From the IMG/VR virus record IMGVR_UViG_2802429224_000016: a DNA stretch of 9,821 nucleotides. The stretch is one strand, 5' to 3'. The stretch is from a virus (Duplodnaviria; Heunggongvirae; Uroviricota; Caudoviricetes). The number at the start of each line of letters is the position of its first letter. Within the stretch, counting starts at the first letter, position 1. Of the stretch, positions 1 to 4,638 are shown piece after piece. The position numbers and the translations under genes are program-made. The notes beneath the pieces are model-generated. The model was not told the origin of the DNA and did no database searches. It was given only the letters and a program-made list of their open reading frames with translations.

Positions 1-1047
1 GTCGCGGGATTTGATGTATTGCTGGTTTCTTTCCCGTTCATCCAGCAGTGCCAGCACGGTTTCTGGTCCGGCCAGAAATTTGAAGGCGTTGAGCGCATCA
101 ATATCCACACCGTAATCTTTAAGTTCCTGTTCACTTAACAAATCATCATCAGATGGCAACATTAACAGGCGTTCCATTGCTGGAATTGCACGTTCCGCCA
201 CCTCACGCAGTGCCTGGTAATTAATTTCGCTCACTGGTTGCCTCCTTTGCGAATCTGTTCCTCTGCGAATCTGTTCCTCCCATTCTTCAAGGGATTTCTC
301 CGCATATTCACCGGACAGGCCATCAATCGGGTACGGTTCATTAGCCAACTCTTCTTTCGCTGACAGAATCATGCGCGTAACGTCGAAAACTTCACGCAAA
401 GACTTATTGATAAATCCGTGATTGAACGCAGCAGCAAGACGGCTGGCGGTATAGTTAATCCCCTCGTTGCGTGCTTCCGCCCGAACTTCAGCCAGGAAAG
501 CGTCGGTGGCTGGGGTTTCGACATTAGGTCGAAGCTCATAATCACAAACTCTTTCAATCCATGGTGATACTCTGTCGCATTTCCTCTTCTTGCGTTCACC
601 GACCTTGGTTGCCTGCTGAATAATTACCCCCCAGCAAATGCTTTCGACCTCTTCGCTCCATCCATCGCAAGCATCGCCTCTATAGTCGTCAATTGCAGCC
701 TCAGCAGCAGCGATAGCCTCCTCAGCAGTTTTGTGACACTCGAAACTAAATTCAGAGCCATATGAGAAATACATAGCCCCGGCCTTAAGCCCCGCATTCT
801 CCGCCGCCAGCGCCGAAAACTTCTCGTGTGCCAACTTAACAGCCGAATCAGCCTGCTTAATTGACTCAATCGCTTTCTGCTGGTCTTCGGCCAGCGCATT
901 AGCACGCACCAGTTGCACTTCCAGTTGCGTTGCCAAATCGCTGATCAGCTTTGCCACACTACGCATATCAACGGCACCACATTCTGCTTTCAGTTCCGAA
1001 GCCATCTCATGCCCGGCGGAAACTAACCCTTTGATATTACTTTCCAT
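1..1047 (-). CDS. Long ORF (349 codons in window, no stop before the left edge): unknown N-terminal part fused in frame to an Ea22-like module
   Basis: Manual translation of the minus strand from ATG 1047-1045 (GAGGG RBS 7 nt upstream) is open through position 1: MESNIKGLVSAGHEMASELKAE...EWEEQIRRGTDSQRRQPVSEINYQALREVAERAIP...PETVLALLDERERNQQYIKSRD. It is absent from the supplied ORF track, presumably because no stop lies in the window. The segment after internal GTG 234-232 (perfect AGGAGG 246-241, 6-nt spacer) matches the N-terminal signature I recall for prophage Ead/Ea22-like proteins (YQALRE...A, then ...TVLALLDER...). Track ORFs 369..599(-) and 624..905(-) are other frames inside this ORF. 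Confidence 0.6.
   Translation of the reverse strand, partial: MESNIKGLVSAGHEMASELKAECGAVDMRSVAKLISDLATQLEVQLVRANALAEDQQKAIESIKQADSAVKLAHEKFSALAAENAGLKAGAMYFSYGSEFSFECHKTAEEAIAAAEAAIDDYRGDACDGWSEEVESICWGVIIQQATKVGERKKRKCDRVSPWIERVCDYELRPNVETPATDAFLAEVRAEARNEGINYTASRLAAAFNHGFINKSLREVFDVTRMILSAKEELANEPYPIDGLSGEYAEKSLEEWEEQIRRGTDSQRRQPVSEINYQALREVAERAIPAMERLLMLPSDDDLLSEQELKDYGVDIDALNAFKFLAGPETVLALLDERERNQQYIKSRD
248..279. repeat. Perfect 16-bp tandem direct duplication (TGCGAATCTGTTCCTC x2, plus strand) inside the long ORF
   Basis: Positions 248-263 and 264-279 are identical. The unit is not a multiple of 3, so it alters the frame relative to a single-copy state. Confidence 0.9.
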
Positions 1048-1108
1048 CTTTACCCTCGCTTATCCACATAACTTATTGATTACATTGATAACTAAAAAGA
1101 TCGTCGAT

Positions 1109-1453
1109 TCAGAACTCTTCGATGTTCCAGCCACCACCTGCTTTCTTTGGCTTAACCGTTACCCCGATGATTCGGAACGGATACTGATCTGCGGCGACTT
1201 TGGTTTTCACCCTGGCGTCGTCGGTCCAGAAACCTTTCACTTCGTGCAGTTCCATCTCGCCGGTGGCGAGCATCACAGCAAAATCGGGCGTATAGAACGT
1301 GTTGTCAGCTAACCGCAGCTTGATACCCTCGAATCGATACCAGGCGATTTCCCCTGCACGTTTACGCTGCTCAAGGTGCTGGCAATACGCAGATTCTGTT
1401 TTGTTCATCTGGCCTGTTTTGAGTCGACCAAGAGCCTGTATCTGTTTTCTCAT
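1109..1453 (-). CDS. DUF1064-like predicted PD-(D/E)xK nuclease (Holliday-junction-resolvase-like fold), 114 aa
   Basis: ORF with ATG 1453 preceded by AGAGGT (5-nt spacer). The protein carries a PD...ExK-type arrangement (YTPDF ... ELHEVKG) and the AGEI...L.L...YTPDF.V pattern I associate with phage DUF1064 proteins. Family call is from memory. Confidence 0.65.
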   Translation of the reverse strand: MRKQIQALGRLKTGQMNKTESAYCQHLEQRKRAGEIAWYRFEGIKLRLADNTFYTPDFAVMLATGEMELHEVKGFWTDDARVKTKVAADQYPFRIIGVTVKPKKAGGGWNIEEF

Positions 1454-1456
1454 GAT

Positions 1457-1533
1457 TTACCTCTAAGGTAATTAAAAACCACATAAGACACGAAATCAAT
1501 AGAGTTTAGAATGTTTTGTTACCTGATAGGTAA
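1457..1533. promoter_or_regulatory. Two operator-like palindromes TTACC-N5-GGTAA (1457-1471 TTACCTCTAAGGTAA; 1519-1533 TTACCTGATAGGTAA)
   Basis: Perfect 5-bp inverted half-sites with a 5-bp spacer, the same motif as in the oR/oL-like regions. Site 1457-1471 overlaps the RBS/5' UTR of the DUF1064-like gene. Confidence 0.5.
1471..1499 (-). promoter_or_regulatory. Candidate sigma70 promoter for the DUF1064-like/Ea22-like unit
   Basis: On the minus strand: -35 TTGATT (plus 1499-1494), 17-bp spacer, -10 TTTAAT (plus 1476-1471). The -10 lacks the conserved A at position 2, so this is weak. The 1457-1471 operator lies immediately downstream of the -10. Confidence 0.3.
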
Positions 1534-1545
1534 TTATTGAGACGT

Positions 1546-1566
1546 AAAAAAATGCGCTATCGCGCT
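1546..1566 (-). terminator. Weak intrinsic-terminator-like element after the P-like gene
   Basis: On the minus strand GCGC-GAUA-GCGC (plus 1554-1565) is followed by a 7-U run (plus A-run 1546-1552). The stem is only 4 bp. Confidence 0.2.
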
Positions 1567-1570
1567 GGTA

Positions 1571-2356
1571 TTACTTGATAAATCCTGCCGCCTTTCCCCG
1601 CCTGTATTCCTCCATCAGCCACTGCGCCGGTGTTATTCCCCCAAGGGTGGCGGCGTTAGGCATGCACCCGAAACTTCGCCCTGGTGGATGGTAAACGTCT
1701 CTCCCTGTGTCCGGAGGTGTACTCATGGGCTCTGGCTTTGCCTGTATGCTGATCACCGGATCGGGTATCTGCTGTCCGGAAGCCACCTTTTTCGCCCAAT
1801 CATCGAGCAGCCTGCGCGCGTGTTTCTCAACCTCAATCTCGCTAAGCTGGCGCTGATACATTGCACGGCGGGTATCACATACGACCCAGTACATAACCGG
1901 ATGTCGCCACGGGAATCTTTCGGGACCACCAGGATATAAACTTTTTTCCTTGCTGTACCGATGAAACTCCGCCATCACATCGTCAATGGTGACGCCAAGA
2001 ACCATCTTGCTGTCTTTACACCACTTGATGAATTGCCCTGGCGACGGCCAGAACGGAGATTCACTGGCGCGGGCGTGGCGCATACCAGCAGAAACCTGTT
2101 CACGGGTTCGGATCCCACTTTCAGCAAACGCAGCAATCCACTGCTGTTTTGCAGCGACTTCCTGCTCTGGCGTCTTCAGGTTGGTTACCACTGCCGCCGG
2201 AAACAGTTGTTTCAGCTGTTTGAAAAGGGCATCAACAAGCCTCTCTGCTGACATGTTCACCACATTGTCATTGTTGACGTACTGATGCTCATAACCTGAC
2301 ATGCGAGAAAGGGCTTCTCCGTCACGGTTTTGTATCGCGGTAAAAACGTTGTTCAC
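1571..2356 (-). CDS. Lambda P-like replication protein (replicative helicase loader)
   Basis: Conserved block WIAAFAESGIRTREQVSAGMRHARASESPFWPSPGQFIKWC resembles lambda P (recalled as RRQWVLAFRENGITTMEQVNAGMRVARRQNRPFLPSPGQFVAWC). Preferred start is GTG 2356-2354, with GGAGGA 6 nt upstream and a GTGA overlap with the O-like stop. The track's ATG 2371 is an in-frame alternative without an RBS. Confidence 0.85.
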   Translation of the reverse strand: MNNVFTAIQNRDGEALSRMSGYEHQYVNNDNVVNMSAERLVDALFKQLKQLFPAAVVTNLKTPEQEVAAKQQWIAAFAESGIRTREQVSAGMRHARASESPFWPSPGQFIKWCKDSKMVLGVTIDDVMAEFHRYSKEKSLYPGGPERFPWRHPVMYWVVCDTRRAMYQRQLSEIEVEKHARRLLDDWAKKVASGQQIPDPVISIQAKPEPMSTPPDTGRDVYHPPGRSFGCMPNAATLGGITPAQWLMEEYRRGKAAGFIK

Positions 2357-3168
2357 AAGAAATCCTCCCATGCTTCAGGGCTGTTCCAGTGCGGAACGTT
2401 GTTATCAGGTAATGTTGATTGCTTCTGTCTGCTAATCTGCAGCCGCCTTGCCAGCTTCTGCTCCCACTGTGCCTGATGGTATGCCTTACCCTCAGCCATC
2501 CAGTAAATTCTGAACTCTGCAAGTTCCTGTGCCGTTGGCAGACTGTCCAGGTAGATCCCCTGCAATGAGCTTTTCCGAAGAAAGTCATCTGATGGCTGCC
2601 ATTGTTCATGCATGACAAATTTGCCTAATTGCCCTGGCCCACGAGGAGGAACAAAGTTATTCATCACGGCGTTGTTTGCGCCGGGGTCATGAGGCACAGA
2701 ATCCCCGCTTTTTGTCCTGCTCTCCCTCTCTTGGTTAAATGACTGGTTATATGACTGGTTCTGGATCCCGTTTTTGGGATCATTCAACATCCCGTTTTTG
2801 GGATCATTCAACATCCCGTTTTTGGGTATATTCCCGTTTTCGGTAACATTACCGTTTTCGGGTTCATTACCCCCCTCCCGGTTGCCTTTAATGTTCCCGT
2901 TTTTGGTTATATTAAGAGAGAAAACCCGTACTCTTTTCGTCGCCCCCTTTCTCTCTCCGGTATCTGAAATAAGCCCCATTTTCATGAGCGATATAAGCCC
3001 GGCCTGCACGGTTTTTTTATTCAGGCAAGTGTCTTTAACGAGGCGTTCTATGCTGGGGTAGCAGAGGTTATATTCATCGGCTCTGTCAGCCATCGAGAGC
3101 AGTATGAGCTTTAATGACGAGCTACCTGGATCTGTCTCCCAGGCCCAATCTGTTGCATGTCTGCTCAT
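2353..3168 (-). CDS. Lambda O-like replication initiator (N-terminal HTH, iteron-encoded low-complexity linker, DnaT/O-like C-terminal domain)
   Basis: 271-aa ORF with ATG 3168 and GGAG RBS. The central peptide repeats (NDPKNGML x2, NG periodicity) are encoded by the iteron array. The C-terminal block QWQPSDDFLRKSSLQGIYLDSLPTAQELAEFRIYWMAEGKAYHQAQWEQKLARRLQ resembles the C-terminal domain of lambdoid O/DnaT-like proteins. Immediately upstream of the P-like gene. Confidence 0.8.
   Translation of the reverse strand: MSRHATDWAWETDPGSSSLKLILLSMADRADEYNLCYPSIERLVKDTCLNKKTVQAGLISLMKMGLISDTGERKGATKRVRVFSLNITKNGNIKGNREGGNEPENGNVTENGNIPKNGMLNDPKNGMLNDPKNGIQNQSYNQSFNQERESRTKSGDSVPHDPGANNAVMNNFVPPRGPGQLGKFVMHEQWQPSDDFLRKSSLQGIYLDSLPTAQELAEFRIYWMAEGKAYHQAQWEQKLARRLQISRQKQSTLPDNNVPHWNSPEAWEDFL
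2765..2910. repeat. Origin-of-replication iteron array inside the O-like gene
   Basis: Two identical 24-bp units ATCCCGTTTTTGGGATCATTCAAC (2765-2788, 2789-2812), a third variant (2813-2836) and degenerate copies with core CCCGTTTT(T)NGG (about 2833, 2852, 2896). The core ATCCC-N6-GGGAT has internal dyad symmetry, as lambda iterons do. Confidence 0.7.
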
Positions 3169-3464: not shown

Positions 3465-3479
3465 TTACCTTTGAGGTAC
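3465..3479. promoter_or_regulatory. Operator-like site TTACCTTTGAGGTAC (14 of 15 match to TTACC-N5-GGTAA)
   Basis: Lies between the post-cro terminator and the Cys/His-rich gene. Followed on the minus strand by a possible weak promoter (TTGATC-N17-CAAAAT). Confidence 0.35.
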
Positions 3480-3480
3480 G

Positions 3481-3513
3481 AATAGATATGAAAAGACCGC
3501 CACCCGGCGGTCT
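3481..3513 (-). terminator. Rho-independent terminator downstream of the Cro-like gene (tR1-like position)
   Basis: Minus-strand RNA AGACCGCC-GGGU-GGCGGUCU (plus 3494-3513; 8-bp GC-rich stem, 4-nt loop) followed by UUUUCAUAUCUAUU. On the plus strand it is preceded by A's rather than followed by T's, so it is unidirectional. Confidence 0.6.
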
Positions 3514-3534: not shown

Positions 3535-3765
3535 TCATGAGTAGAAGAAGTATGCCAGTTCTGCTTTTGAGCGCAGCCATTGTCTTGTTTTACAGGCTTT
3601 AAAAAGCCCATTCATCAATACTTTACCTGGCATTTTGCGCTTACCTGTTAAGTGAGTCTGGATATAGTGACTCGTCGTTCCGGCTTCCTGTGCGAAGGCT
3701 TCACGCTCATCCGGAGTAAGTGCAAGCCAGTGCTTTTTGAAATCGAAATGTCCGTTATCGCTCAT
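3535..3765 (-). CDS. Cro-like small HTH regulator (76 aa)
   Basis: Divergent from the repressor gene. The segment AGTTSHYIQTHLTGKRKMPGKVL resembles the lambda Cro recognition region (recalled as GVYQSAINKAIHAGRKIFL). Position and orientation match cro in a lambdoid immunity region. Confidence 0.65.
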   Translation of the reverse strand: MSDNGHFDFKKHWLALTPDEREAFAQEAGTTSHYIQTHLTGKRKMPGKVLMNGLFKACKTRQWLRSKAELAYFFYS

Positions 3766-3790: not shown

Positions 3791-3819
3791 ATAATAAATA
3801 TTCACCCATAAGGTAACAA
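3791..3819 (-). promoter_or_regulatory. pR-like promoter driving the Cro-like gene
   Basis: On the minus strand: -35 TTGTTA (plus 3819-3814), 17-bp spacer, -10 TATTAT (plus 3796-3791). Operator site 3802-3816 sits inside the spacer/-35. Confidence 0.45.
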
Positions 3820-3864
3820 AAATCAAGGATAGTTACCTATGAGGTGCATTTACCTGTTGGGTAA
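3802..3864. promoter_or_regulatory. oR-like tripartite operator (3802-3816 TCACCCATAAGGTAA; 3833-3847 TTACCTATGAGGTGC; 3850-3864 TTACCTGTTGGGTAA)
   Basis: Three 15-bp palindromic sites in the divergent intergenic region between the Cro-like and repressor genes, centre spacings 31 and 17 bp. One perfect, two with 1-2 mismatches. Confidence 0.55.
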
Positions 3865-3919: not shown

Positions 3920-4504
3920 ATGAAAAGTATCCAGGACGTCCGCAGGCAAAATCTCAACGACTTGATCGACCGTGAATTCAATGGTGTTCAGACGCGGATG
4001 GCAGAAAAACTTGGAACTCAGGCAAATCTGGTAAACCGCTGGGCTCTTGGCAAGAAGGTTATCGGCGACCAGGTTGCGCGAAAAATTGAAGCTGCCGCCA
4101 ATAAACCCCGTAACTGGCTTGATATCGATCGCTCGCTTTCTCAGGAAGGTTTTCAGCCTGTCGGCCCGAGTGATATAGGTCAGCTGGCTGCTCACAACCT
4201 GGAACGCTGGATGAGCGAAAGCCGCGACCTTTCAACGCAGGGAAAACTACACCGCGCATCCGGCGTCGCCCAGGTGACAATCAGCCGCCTGTTAAACAAT
4301 GAGGTCAGCGTTTCCATTTCCACCCTGGAGAATGTTGCATCTGCATTCGGGCGTCATGGCTATGAATTACTGATTCACCCGCACGACCCTGCGACTATCA
4401 ACTATGACCGCTCGCGCTACGCATTGTTACCCGAAACCGAGAAAGCAAAGATCGAAAGTTACATTGAATTTGTCATCAACCAGAACGAAAAAAACAAACA
4501 ATAA
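3920..4504 (+). CDS. Putative prophage repressor with tandem HTH_XRE-like domains, no S24/LexA-type peptidase domain (194 aa)
   Basis: First HTH around QTRMAEKLGTQANLVNRWALGKKVIGDQVARKIEAA, second around LHRASGVAQVTISRLLNNEVSVSISTLENVASAFG. No Ser/Lys autocleavage motif seen in the C-terminus. cI-equivalent position: divergent from cro, flanked by both operator clusters. No SD upstream of ATG 3920, so a leaderless transcript is possible. Confidence 0.7.
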   Translation: MKSIQDVRRQNLNDLIDREFNGVQTRMAEKLGTQANLVNRWALGKKVIGDQVARKIEAAANKPRNWLDIDRSLSQEGFQPVGPSDIGQLAAHNLERWMSESRDLSTQGKLHRASGVAQVTISRLLNNEVSVSISTLENVASAFGRHGYELLIHPHDPATINYDRSRYALLPETEKAKIESYIEFVINQNEKNKQ

Positions 4505-4524: not shown

Positions 4525-4550
4525 AAGCCGCCATGAGGCGGCTTTTTTAT
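4525..4550 (+). terminator. Rho-independent terminator after the repressor gene
   Basis: AAGCCGCC-ATGA-GGCGGCTT (4525-4544) followed by TTTTTTATT. Confidence 0.7.
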
Positions 4551-4561
4551 TGCCTGTTAGA

Positions 4562-4638
4562 TTACCTGTTGGGTAATTTTTTTAACTCATATCTATTGAC
4601 ATCAAACCAGATACGCATAATTATTACCTAAACGGTAA
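4562..4638. promoter_or_regulatory. oL-like operator pair (4562-4576 TTACCTGTTGGGTAA; 4624-4638 TTACCTAAACGGTAA)
   Basis: Two perfect palindromes flanking a candidate promoter. The 16-mer TTACCTGTTGGGTAAT is identical to the site at 3850-3865. Confidence 0.55.
4596..4624 (+). promoter_or_regulatory. pL-like promoter for the rightward early operon
   Basis: Perfect -35 TTGACA (4596-4601). The -10 is either AATTAT at 17-bp spacing (4619-4624) or CATAAT at 14-bp spacing (4616-4621). The -10 region abuts or overlaps operator 4624-4638. Confidence 0.35.

Follow-up and report, generated by a model that had tools for sequence, protein, structure and literature searches.

Among the described systems close to the locus analysed here is the Rep-Ant lysis-lysogeny switch of Salmonella phage SPC32H, which was reportedly set out by Kim & Ryu in 2013 and by Kim et al. 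in 2016, with structures under PDB 5D4Z/5D50. According to two papers, SPC32H Rep binds DNA with its N-terminal domain, dimerises through the middle one and forms tetramers through the C-terminal one, and is not cleaved in the SOS response; its tetramer is disassembled by the antirepressor Ant, which is LexA-controlled (PMC9638917, PMC9986798). The first of these papers also states that Rep binds palindromic DNA as a tetramer and that one tetramer is enough for repression (PMC9638917). Crystal packing hints at octamers and the C-terminal tetramerisation domain resembles looping domains; the mechanism of repression "has not been extensively characterized" (PMC9986798). The published work, as cited in these papers, concerns the structure of Rep and its disassembly by Ant, and the texts searched describe no post-replication promoter.

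A second point of reference is the type phage epsilon15, a Salmonella phage whose RefSeq record (NC_004775.2) carries seven sites annotated as protein_bind "repressor / lysogeny". One of these, at 35906-35922, contains the palindrome TTACC-N5-GGTAA and lies after the last replication gene and a T-run terminator, ahead of the resolvase gene. A second site is found 62 bp downstream and overlaps the Shine-Dalgarno sequence. The record, whose annotation is a prediction, marks the upstream site only and gives no promoter.

The window, by which we mean the whole stretch of 9,821 nucleotides analysed (IMG/VR record IMGVR_UViG_2802429224_000016), is 97-98% identical to the early region of phiv142-3 and phiV10 (Uetakevirus, epsilon15-like podophages), and its sequence identifies it as the early region of a phiV10/epsilon15-like (Uetakevirus) prophage. 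The features that matter for what follows are:

1-1048, minus strand: long reading frame of the Eae/Ea22-like region, after the DUF1064 gene; Met at about 1048, open to position 1
1109-1453, minus strand: DUF1064 gene (Pfam DUF1064, E 3e-7; PHROG 190 "Holliday junction resolvase", E 6e-43)
1571-2371, minus strand: lambda-P-like replication gene (Pfam Phage_lambda_P, E 6e-57), with its stop codon at 1571-1573
2353-3168, minus strand: O-like gene, DnaT/HTH (HTH_36)
3535-3765: gene of a Cro-like protein, which matches a transcriptional-repressor PHROG
3802-3816 (one mismatch), 3833-3847 (two mismatches) and 3850-3864 (perfect): OR, between the cro-like gene and rep
3920-4504, plus strand: repressor gene rep, 194 aa, homologue of SPC32H Rep (PDB 5D50_A, E 4e-42, residues 1-190)
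4525-4544: rep terminator, just before the OL/PL cassette
4562-4638, plus strand: OL/PL cassette, with operators at 4562-4576 and 4624-4638, 62 bp apart
4596-4601 and 4619-4624, plus strand: PL hexamers TTGACA and AATTAT, separated by 17 nt

The gap at 1454-1570 thus has the neighbours that the earlier note had given it, a P-like gene on one side and a DUF1064 gene on the other. The P-like gene is the last gene of the PR-side unit and lies upstream of the gap; the DUF1064 protein, judged by its profile matches, is likely a Holliday-junction resolvase. In phiv142-3 and phiV10, the post-replication unit runs on to a gp49-like transcriptional regulator just before terS. The long frame at 1-1048 encodes at least 349 aa up to the left end of the window, and the matching gene of phiv142-3 encodes 266 aa. 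Similarity to phiv142-3 and phiV10 breaks near 259, inside this frame, a pattern suggestive of a deletion, a fusion or a mosaic junction within the Eae/Ea22-like region. Within the O-like gene, positions 2732-2917 hold six direct repeats of 18-24 bp (ATCCCGTTTTTGGGATCATTCAAC and variants) and one 12-bp tandem pair. The array is probably the set of replication-origin iterons, as in lambda O; two of its repeats showed up as false "terminators" in the terminator scan.

Five perfect copies of TTACC-N5-GGTAA are present in the window, starting at 1457, 1519, 3850, 4562 and 4624, where 200 dinucleotide-preserving shuffles of the window give an expectation of 0.00. When up to two mismatches are allowed, ten copies are observed against 3.0 expected, and the imperfect ones include those starting at 3802, 3833 and 3465. 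Two of the perfect copies fall in the 1454-1570 gap, exactly where the earlier note had located them. Their half-sites are those of the three perfect copies near rep and the cro-like gene (3850, 4562 and 4624), and because the latter flank these two genes as OR and OL, the palindrome is taken to be the immunity operator. We refer to the pair in the gap as O3 and to the candidate promoter between its two sites as P3. Read along the minus strand, the gap is organised as follows:

1546-1565, minus strand: terminator-like element, GCGC-GATA-GCGC, A, T7, directly 3' of the P-like stop codon
1519-1533: upstream operator TTACCTGATAGGTAA, centred at about -62 from the predicted start site
1494-1499, minus strand: candidate -35 TTGATT, within an invariant CTATTGA motif common to PL
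1471-1476, minus strand: candidate -10 TTTAAT, 17 nt past the -35, with a final T that doubles as the first base of the downstream operator
about 1464, minus strand: predicted start site, about 11 nt before the DUF1064 ATG
1457-1471: downstream operator TTACCTCTAAGGTAA, with the predicted start site at its centre; contains the DUF1064 Shine-Dalgarno sequence GAGG (1460-1463)
1453, minus strand: ATG of the DUF1064 gene

Both the overlap of the 1457-1471 palindrome with the ribosome binding site and the candidate -10 that adjoins it had been pointed out before and are borne out here. A search against Rfam gave no meaningful RNA family: its sole match, a snoRNA on the palindromes, stayed below threshold at 24 bits (gathering score 39; E 0.78) and was treated as chance.

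The element at 1546-1565 folds as RNA with -8.4 kcal/mol (z -2.2). Its GC stem of 4 bp is shorter than the 5 bp or more that, together with a T-run, define an intrinsic terminator, and a scan for stems of at least 5 pairs does not list it. The arrangement GCGC-N4-GCGC-A-T7 is, nevertheless, kept in seven of eight diverged phages, and its equivalent is annotated as a putative rho-independent terminator in the phiV10 record. Because of this conserved position and annotation, the element may work as a weak terminator.

The candidate promoter matches the sigma-70 consensus at four of six positions in the -35 and at five of six in the -10, with the 17-nt spacing. Position 2 of its -10 is a T. The consensus A at this position, which is the most conserved base of the hexamer, is absent from both TTTAAT and TTAAAT. 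For this reason TTGATT-17-TTTAAT is not called by the promoter scan, and for the same reason the promoter may be weak or dependent on an activator. Other -10 registers and an extended -10 were considered, and in no register do all relatives combine an A at position 2 with a T at position 6. A plus-strand hit of the promoter scan (AAGACA-16-TAGAAT, 1485-1512), which as an antisense promoter would face the P-like gene, was rejected, as it is not conserved in SPN1S, epsilon15 and BUCT554.

The two hexamers stand in register with those of PL. The O3 cassette on the minus strand can be aligned without gaps to OL/PL, and both have the order operator, 19 nt, -35, 17 nt, and a -10 fused to the next operator; the 19 nt from the upstream operator to TTGATT equal the distance from operator to TTGACA at PL. 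The junction of -10 and operator is common to PL (AATTAT/TACC) and the late promoter of the relatives (TAnTAT/TACC). The operators of the O3 pair are 62 bp apart, or about 5.9 helical turns. Outside the functional elements the resemblance is marginal, with 20/47 identities in the inter-operator stretches of O3 and OL (shuffle p about 0.05). O3 as a recent duplicate of OL was considered and set aside: the geometry is common to both, and paralogy is unsupported by this degree of identity.

The three-site layout of OR is found in SPN1S and epsilon15 also. Next to the immunity region, a strong terminator 3' of the cro-like gene (3494-3513, minus strand) is followed by an operator with one mismatch at 3465-3479 (GTACCTCAAAGGTAA, minus strand), and past it by TTGATC, 17 nt and CAAAAT, ahead of an epsilon15-gp40-like gene. 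phiV10 shares this site, and a one-mismatch site lies nearby in BUCT554 and in a Raoultella prophage (L088); no equivalent with one mismatch or fewer was found at that place in SPN1S or TL-2011b. The 3465-3513 locus may be a half-cassette or a weak fourth promoter.

The protein expected to occupy these sites is a full-length homologue of SPC32H Rep. Pfam detects only HTH domains in the 3920-4504 product, with no S24 peptidase domain, and by homology it has an HTH DNA-binding domain at its N-terminus, a dimerisation domain in the middle and, at its C-terminus, a domain for tetramerisation and Ant binding. The close relative phiV10 encodes an Ant homologue, p24 (PDB 5D50_E, E 2.9e-46). These matches point not to a lambda-CI-like repressor but to a tetramer of the SPC32H-Rep type, inactivated by Ant. 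The recognition-helix residues N36, L37, R40 and W41 are invariant over homologues that are 42-100% identical. In a search for covariation of O3 with OR and OL, no changed operator specificity was found among the Rep homologues, all of which, down to 42% identity, use TTACC/GGTAA.

The O3 pair is strongly conserved. With invariant half-sites and exactly 62 bp of spacing, it is present in phiV10, TL-2011b, BUCT554, epsilon15 and SPN1S, the last a near-twin of SPC32H, as well as in two prophages, one of Raoultella and one of E. coli, with Rep identities of just 54-59%. Among 80 IMG/VR prophages with identical Rep, 76 have the pair and the other four are rearranged. In eight diverged phages, invariance is confined to the T-run, the ATG, all four half-sites and the motifs CTATTGA and TT(T/A)AAT. 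Neither the half-sites nor the two hexamers show any change in 59 distinct O3 cassettes from the identical-Rep prophages, and the operator spacers have the highest entropy. Most variable are the N5 of the upstream operator and about 10 nt before it; the N5 of the downstream operator shows less variation, which fits its additional use as a Shine-Dalgarno sequence. The cassette persists although its flanking genes differ among phages, with a P-like or DnaT-like gene upstream and DUF1064 or RuvC downstream. In epsilon15, for instance, the flanks are DnaT-like and RuvC, and the RuvC-type resolvase occupies the slot of DUF1064. Prophages with identical Rep differ in how far O3 lies from rep, whereas their local 62-bp spacing is fixed.

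Two variations were noted in this comparison. In the identical-Rep prophages (L006-L085), the central 5 bp of the promoter-distal operator vary far above the surrounding intergenic DNA, and about 10 nt between the terminator and this operator are likewise hypervariable (59 distinct cassettes at O3, 53 at OL). This variability could come from a loosening of constraint, from adjustment of operator affinity or from recombination where modules meet. In a metagenome-derived phage contig and a Serratia prophage (L086, 4642-4674; L087, 4285-4317), both with a Rep about 54-55% identical, the post-replication operators are 18 bp apart, one perfect and one with a mismatch. These two thus have an arrangement of the terS/OR type at this locus instead of the 62-bp pair, and a clamp over 62 bp is accordingly not obligatory.

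The earlier note had also proposed scanning the motif more widely and had presented the gap as a third repressor locus, apart from the immunity region. The scan places it in a larger set. The phiV10 genome has eight perfect sites and six with one mismatch. Twelve of these 14 lie outside annotated coding sequence in a genome that is 93.5% coding (P = 4.5e-13), and the remaining two are within the 5' end of terS, which is probably mis-called. In epsilon15, 11 perfect and four one-mismatch sites are found at orthologous places. The loci in epsilon15 lie upstream of terS, gp3 and int, in the ant/tail-fibre and conversion/lysis gaps, and at OL, OR and O3. The gap is therefore not a singular third locus, but one of about nine conserved intergenic loci with Rep sites, one of which precedes terS. 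Since 35906-35922 of epsilon15 is the orthologue of the upstream O3 site at 1519-1533, the site is already recognised in the type phage, as an annotation, and its existence is not new.

Upstream of terS, all relatives have a terminator, an extended -10 (TGnTAnTAT) and two adjacent operators 18 bp apart, joined to the -10 as at O3 and PL and immediately before the terS ATG. The coordinates of this late-operon cassette, by record, are:

phiV10 (L091), 60-125: late-operon cassette
epsilon15 (L090), 1-46: late-operon cassette
L086-L089, upstream of terS: late-operon cassette

The arrangement suggests direct repression of the late operon by Rep. In phiV10, the terS start is annotated at 41, upstream of the late-operon terminator; it is probably mis-called, and the likely start is near 121-124.

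Further features were seen around the other dispersed sites. A palindrome of the GTGACATGTCAC type is conserved where the gene for the gp49-like regulator ends, just ahead of the late terminator and promoter (39100-39104 joined to 1-12 in phiV10, and the same place in L086, L087, L092 and epsilon15); it might be the target of a late-gene regulator or a site related to packaging. The ant homologue of phiV10 (20543-20800, minus strand) is bracketed by copies of the operator motif at 20484-20524 and 20877-20891. At the first of these, a 41-bp perfect palindrome (20484-20524) just past the ant stop codon encloses a perfect site at 20497. The second is a one-mismatch site in the ant/tail-fibre gap, and its epsilon15 orthologue at 19895-19911 is perfect and carries a repressor-site annotation. 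Every relative checked has a conserved one-mismatch copy, TTACC-N5-GGTAT, some 40-60 bp ahead of the integrase gene (883-897 in epsilon15 record L005, 26870-26884 in phiV10, 12724 in L086, 13073 in L088 and 13783 in L089). The corresponding position is just beyond the right end of the window. This site may serve Rep control of int, or be part of attP.

On balance, we consider that 1454-1570 is probably a secondary early promoter on the minus strand that is repressed by Rep. Rep binding to O3, the promoter activity, the start site and the bridging by one tetramer are all features that we infer. Two strictly conserved operators downstream of a terminator imply that something between them needs repressing in the lysogen. 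Transcription that starts at PR and crosses the cro-like, O-like and P-like genes would mostly end at the weak terminator at 1546-1565. A sigma-70-type promoter (TTGATT, 17 nt, TTTAAT) would restart transcription about 11 nt before the DUF1064 ATG, and drive both the resolvase-like and the Eae/Ea22-like genes. The P3 unit of complete relatives would end with the gp49-like regulator, just before the late genes. In the lysogen, a Rep tetramer of the SPC32H type would bind both operators, at about +1 and about -62, and keep the P3 unit silent. Because the tetramer has two DNA-binding units, a single one could clamp both sites and so enclose the promoter. Upon SOS induction, the LexA-controlled Ant would break the tetramer, and P3 would open together with PL and PR. 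Read-through from PR may still supply much of the downstream expression, since the stem of the terminator is only 4 bp.

That the repressor gates a separate downstream unit had been the main suggestion of the earlier note. The idea is well backed by comparison: the terminator, the invariance of operators and hexamers, the geometry shared with OL/PL, the persistence of the cassette between differing flanking genes and the epsilon15 annotation all argue for it; the non-consensus -10 argues against. The weakness of the terminator and the missing consensus A of the uncalled -10 have led us to consider a locus with no promoter of its own. Here a roadblock or insulator would be formed, in which bound Rep or Cro-like protein backs the terminator and blocks read-through from PR, and the resolvase and Eae/Ea22 genes would be expressed only by read-through once the sites are vacated. 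There is a precedent in mycobacteriophage L5, where dispersed repressor sites known as stoperators stop elongation. The L5 sites are asymmetric and dependent on orientation, lie inside transcribed regions and have no associated promoter, whereas the O3 sites are palindromic and flank a promoter-like core. A roadblock would, moreover, add little in the lysogen, because PR is already repressed at OR. It also leaves unexplained the invariance of CTATTGA-N17-TT(T/A)AAT in the diverged phages and in the 59 variants, and the exact register with PL. We regard this explanation as unlikely.

It is more doubtful still that the palindromes serve mainly a protein other than Rep, be it the Cro-like protein alone, the gp49-like regulator or a host factor. 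The Cro-like protein, with its match to a repressor PHROG, is expected to share operators with Rep, and an operator shared by the two would not contradict a promoter repressed by Rep. The motif, however, clusters at the divergent region between rep and the cro-like gene and again after rep, which is the classical layout of OR and OL, and the curators of epsilon15 assign it to the repressor. The recognition helix of Rep and the half-sites are, in addition, both invariant across the family.

The octamers and the looping-type domain mentioned above, together with the odd number of sites at OR, would fit an anchor for long-range looping, a possibility raised in the earlier note, in which Rep oligomers pair O3 with OR (2.3 kb away) and OL (3.1 kb) and stabilise repression of the immunity region as OL-OR looping does in lambda; this is the least probable of the alternatives, and a very improbable one, since looping over kilobases is unnecessary when local pairs (62 bp or 17-18 bp) can saturate the two DNA-binding units of one tetramer, one tetramer is reported to suffice for SPC32H repression (PMC9638917), and the O3-rep distance varies with identical Rep while the 62-bp spacing does not. 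Local promoter control is also the better fit to about nine dispersed loci that each stand upstream of a gene block. In a lambda-type loop, cooperative oligomerisation of the CI type bridges distant operator clusters, with a measurable effect on repression; Rep is without a C-terminal domain of the CI type or S24 type.

A Rep-repressed P3 can be placed in a wider scheme, which we put forward tentatively. In epsilon15-like podophages, a single tetrameric, non-cleavable repressor might hold every lytic operon shut directly, through a reiterated cassette of terminator, operator, promoter and operator. If so, the units shut by Rep would be those of PR, PL, the post-replication region and the terS/late operon, and probably also the gp3, ant/tail-fibre, conversion/lysis and int regions. 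Each cassette would take one tetramer, either in a 62-bp micro-loop around the promoter or on an adjacent pair 17-18 bp apart. Disassembly driven by Ant would then open all units together and take the place of the lambda antitermination cascade, with timing left to promoter strength and the gp49-like regulator at the end of the P3 unit. The existence of about nine conserved loci suggests that lytic control in the phiV10/epsilon15 group relies on direct repression of multiple promoters, with no antitermination cascade.

Full-text literature searches for the operator sequences and for Uetakevirus operators gave no match, and no experiments on binding or start sites at an O3-type locus were found for any phage in a search that did not extend to the primary papers on SPC32H and epsilon15. 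The paper on vB_EcoP_ZX5 gives four predicted promoters, whose positions are not in its text. The novelty of the locus is low, because its epsilon15 orthologue is already annotated and phage repressors with multiple operators are well known. Its value is as a clean test bed for how a structurally solved Rep tetramer engages paired operators: the fixed 62-bp pair around a promoter, repeated at PL, predicts a promoter clamp formed by a single tetramer. Phages of the phiV10 type serve as reporter phages for E. coli O157, and those of the SPC32H/SPN1S type are used in Salmonella work, so that knowing which units Rep silences is of practical value.

The locus can be compared with several known systems. 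The tetrameric SPC32H Rep on palindromic DNA, as reported, fits the paired sites of the window. In lambda, the palindromic operators of OL/PL and OR/PR lie across the core promoter, from which the repressor keeps RNA polymerase away, as would be the case at O3. The O3 cassette follows a terminator, much as lambda tR2 follows P. Expression downstream of P in lambda relies on N antitermination, and lambda is not known to have an operator after P. Whereas lambda has three adjacent sites, the cassette has two that are 62 bp apart, and its repressor is a non-cleavable tetramer without the CI-type C-terminal domain.

Repressors with dispersed operators include C1 of P1, CI of coliphage 186, which acts at the late-activator promoter pB, and CB of N15, which acts at repA. 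In these phages, too, one immunity repressor directly controls several operons, some of them outside the immunity region. The repressor families are unrelated to Rep, and the P1 operators are asymmetric. What is specific to the epsilon15-like group, compared with P1, 186 and N15, is the reiterated cassette of terminator, operator, promoter and operator with its fixed 62-bp spacing. Parallels are also found in the auxiliary-operator repression loops of tetrameric repressors, lac O1/O3 and gal OE/OI, where two operators likewise flank a promoter at a near-integral number of turns (62 bp being about 5.9 here) and the repressor has two DNA-binding units. The proteins are unrelated, and the loop proposed for the window follows from the operator spacing and the reported tetramer only.
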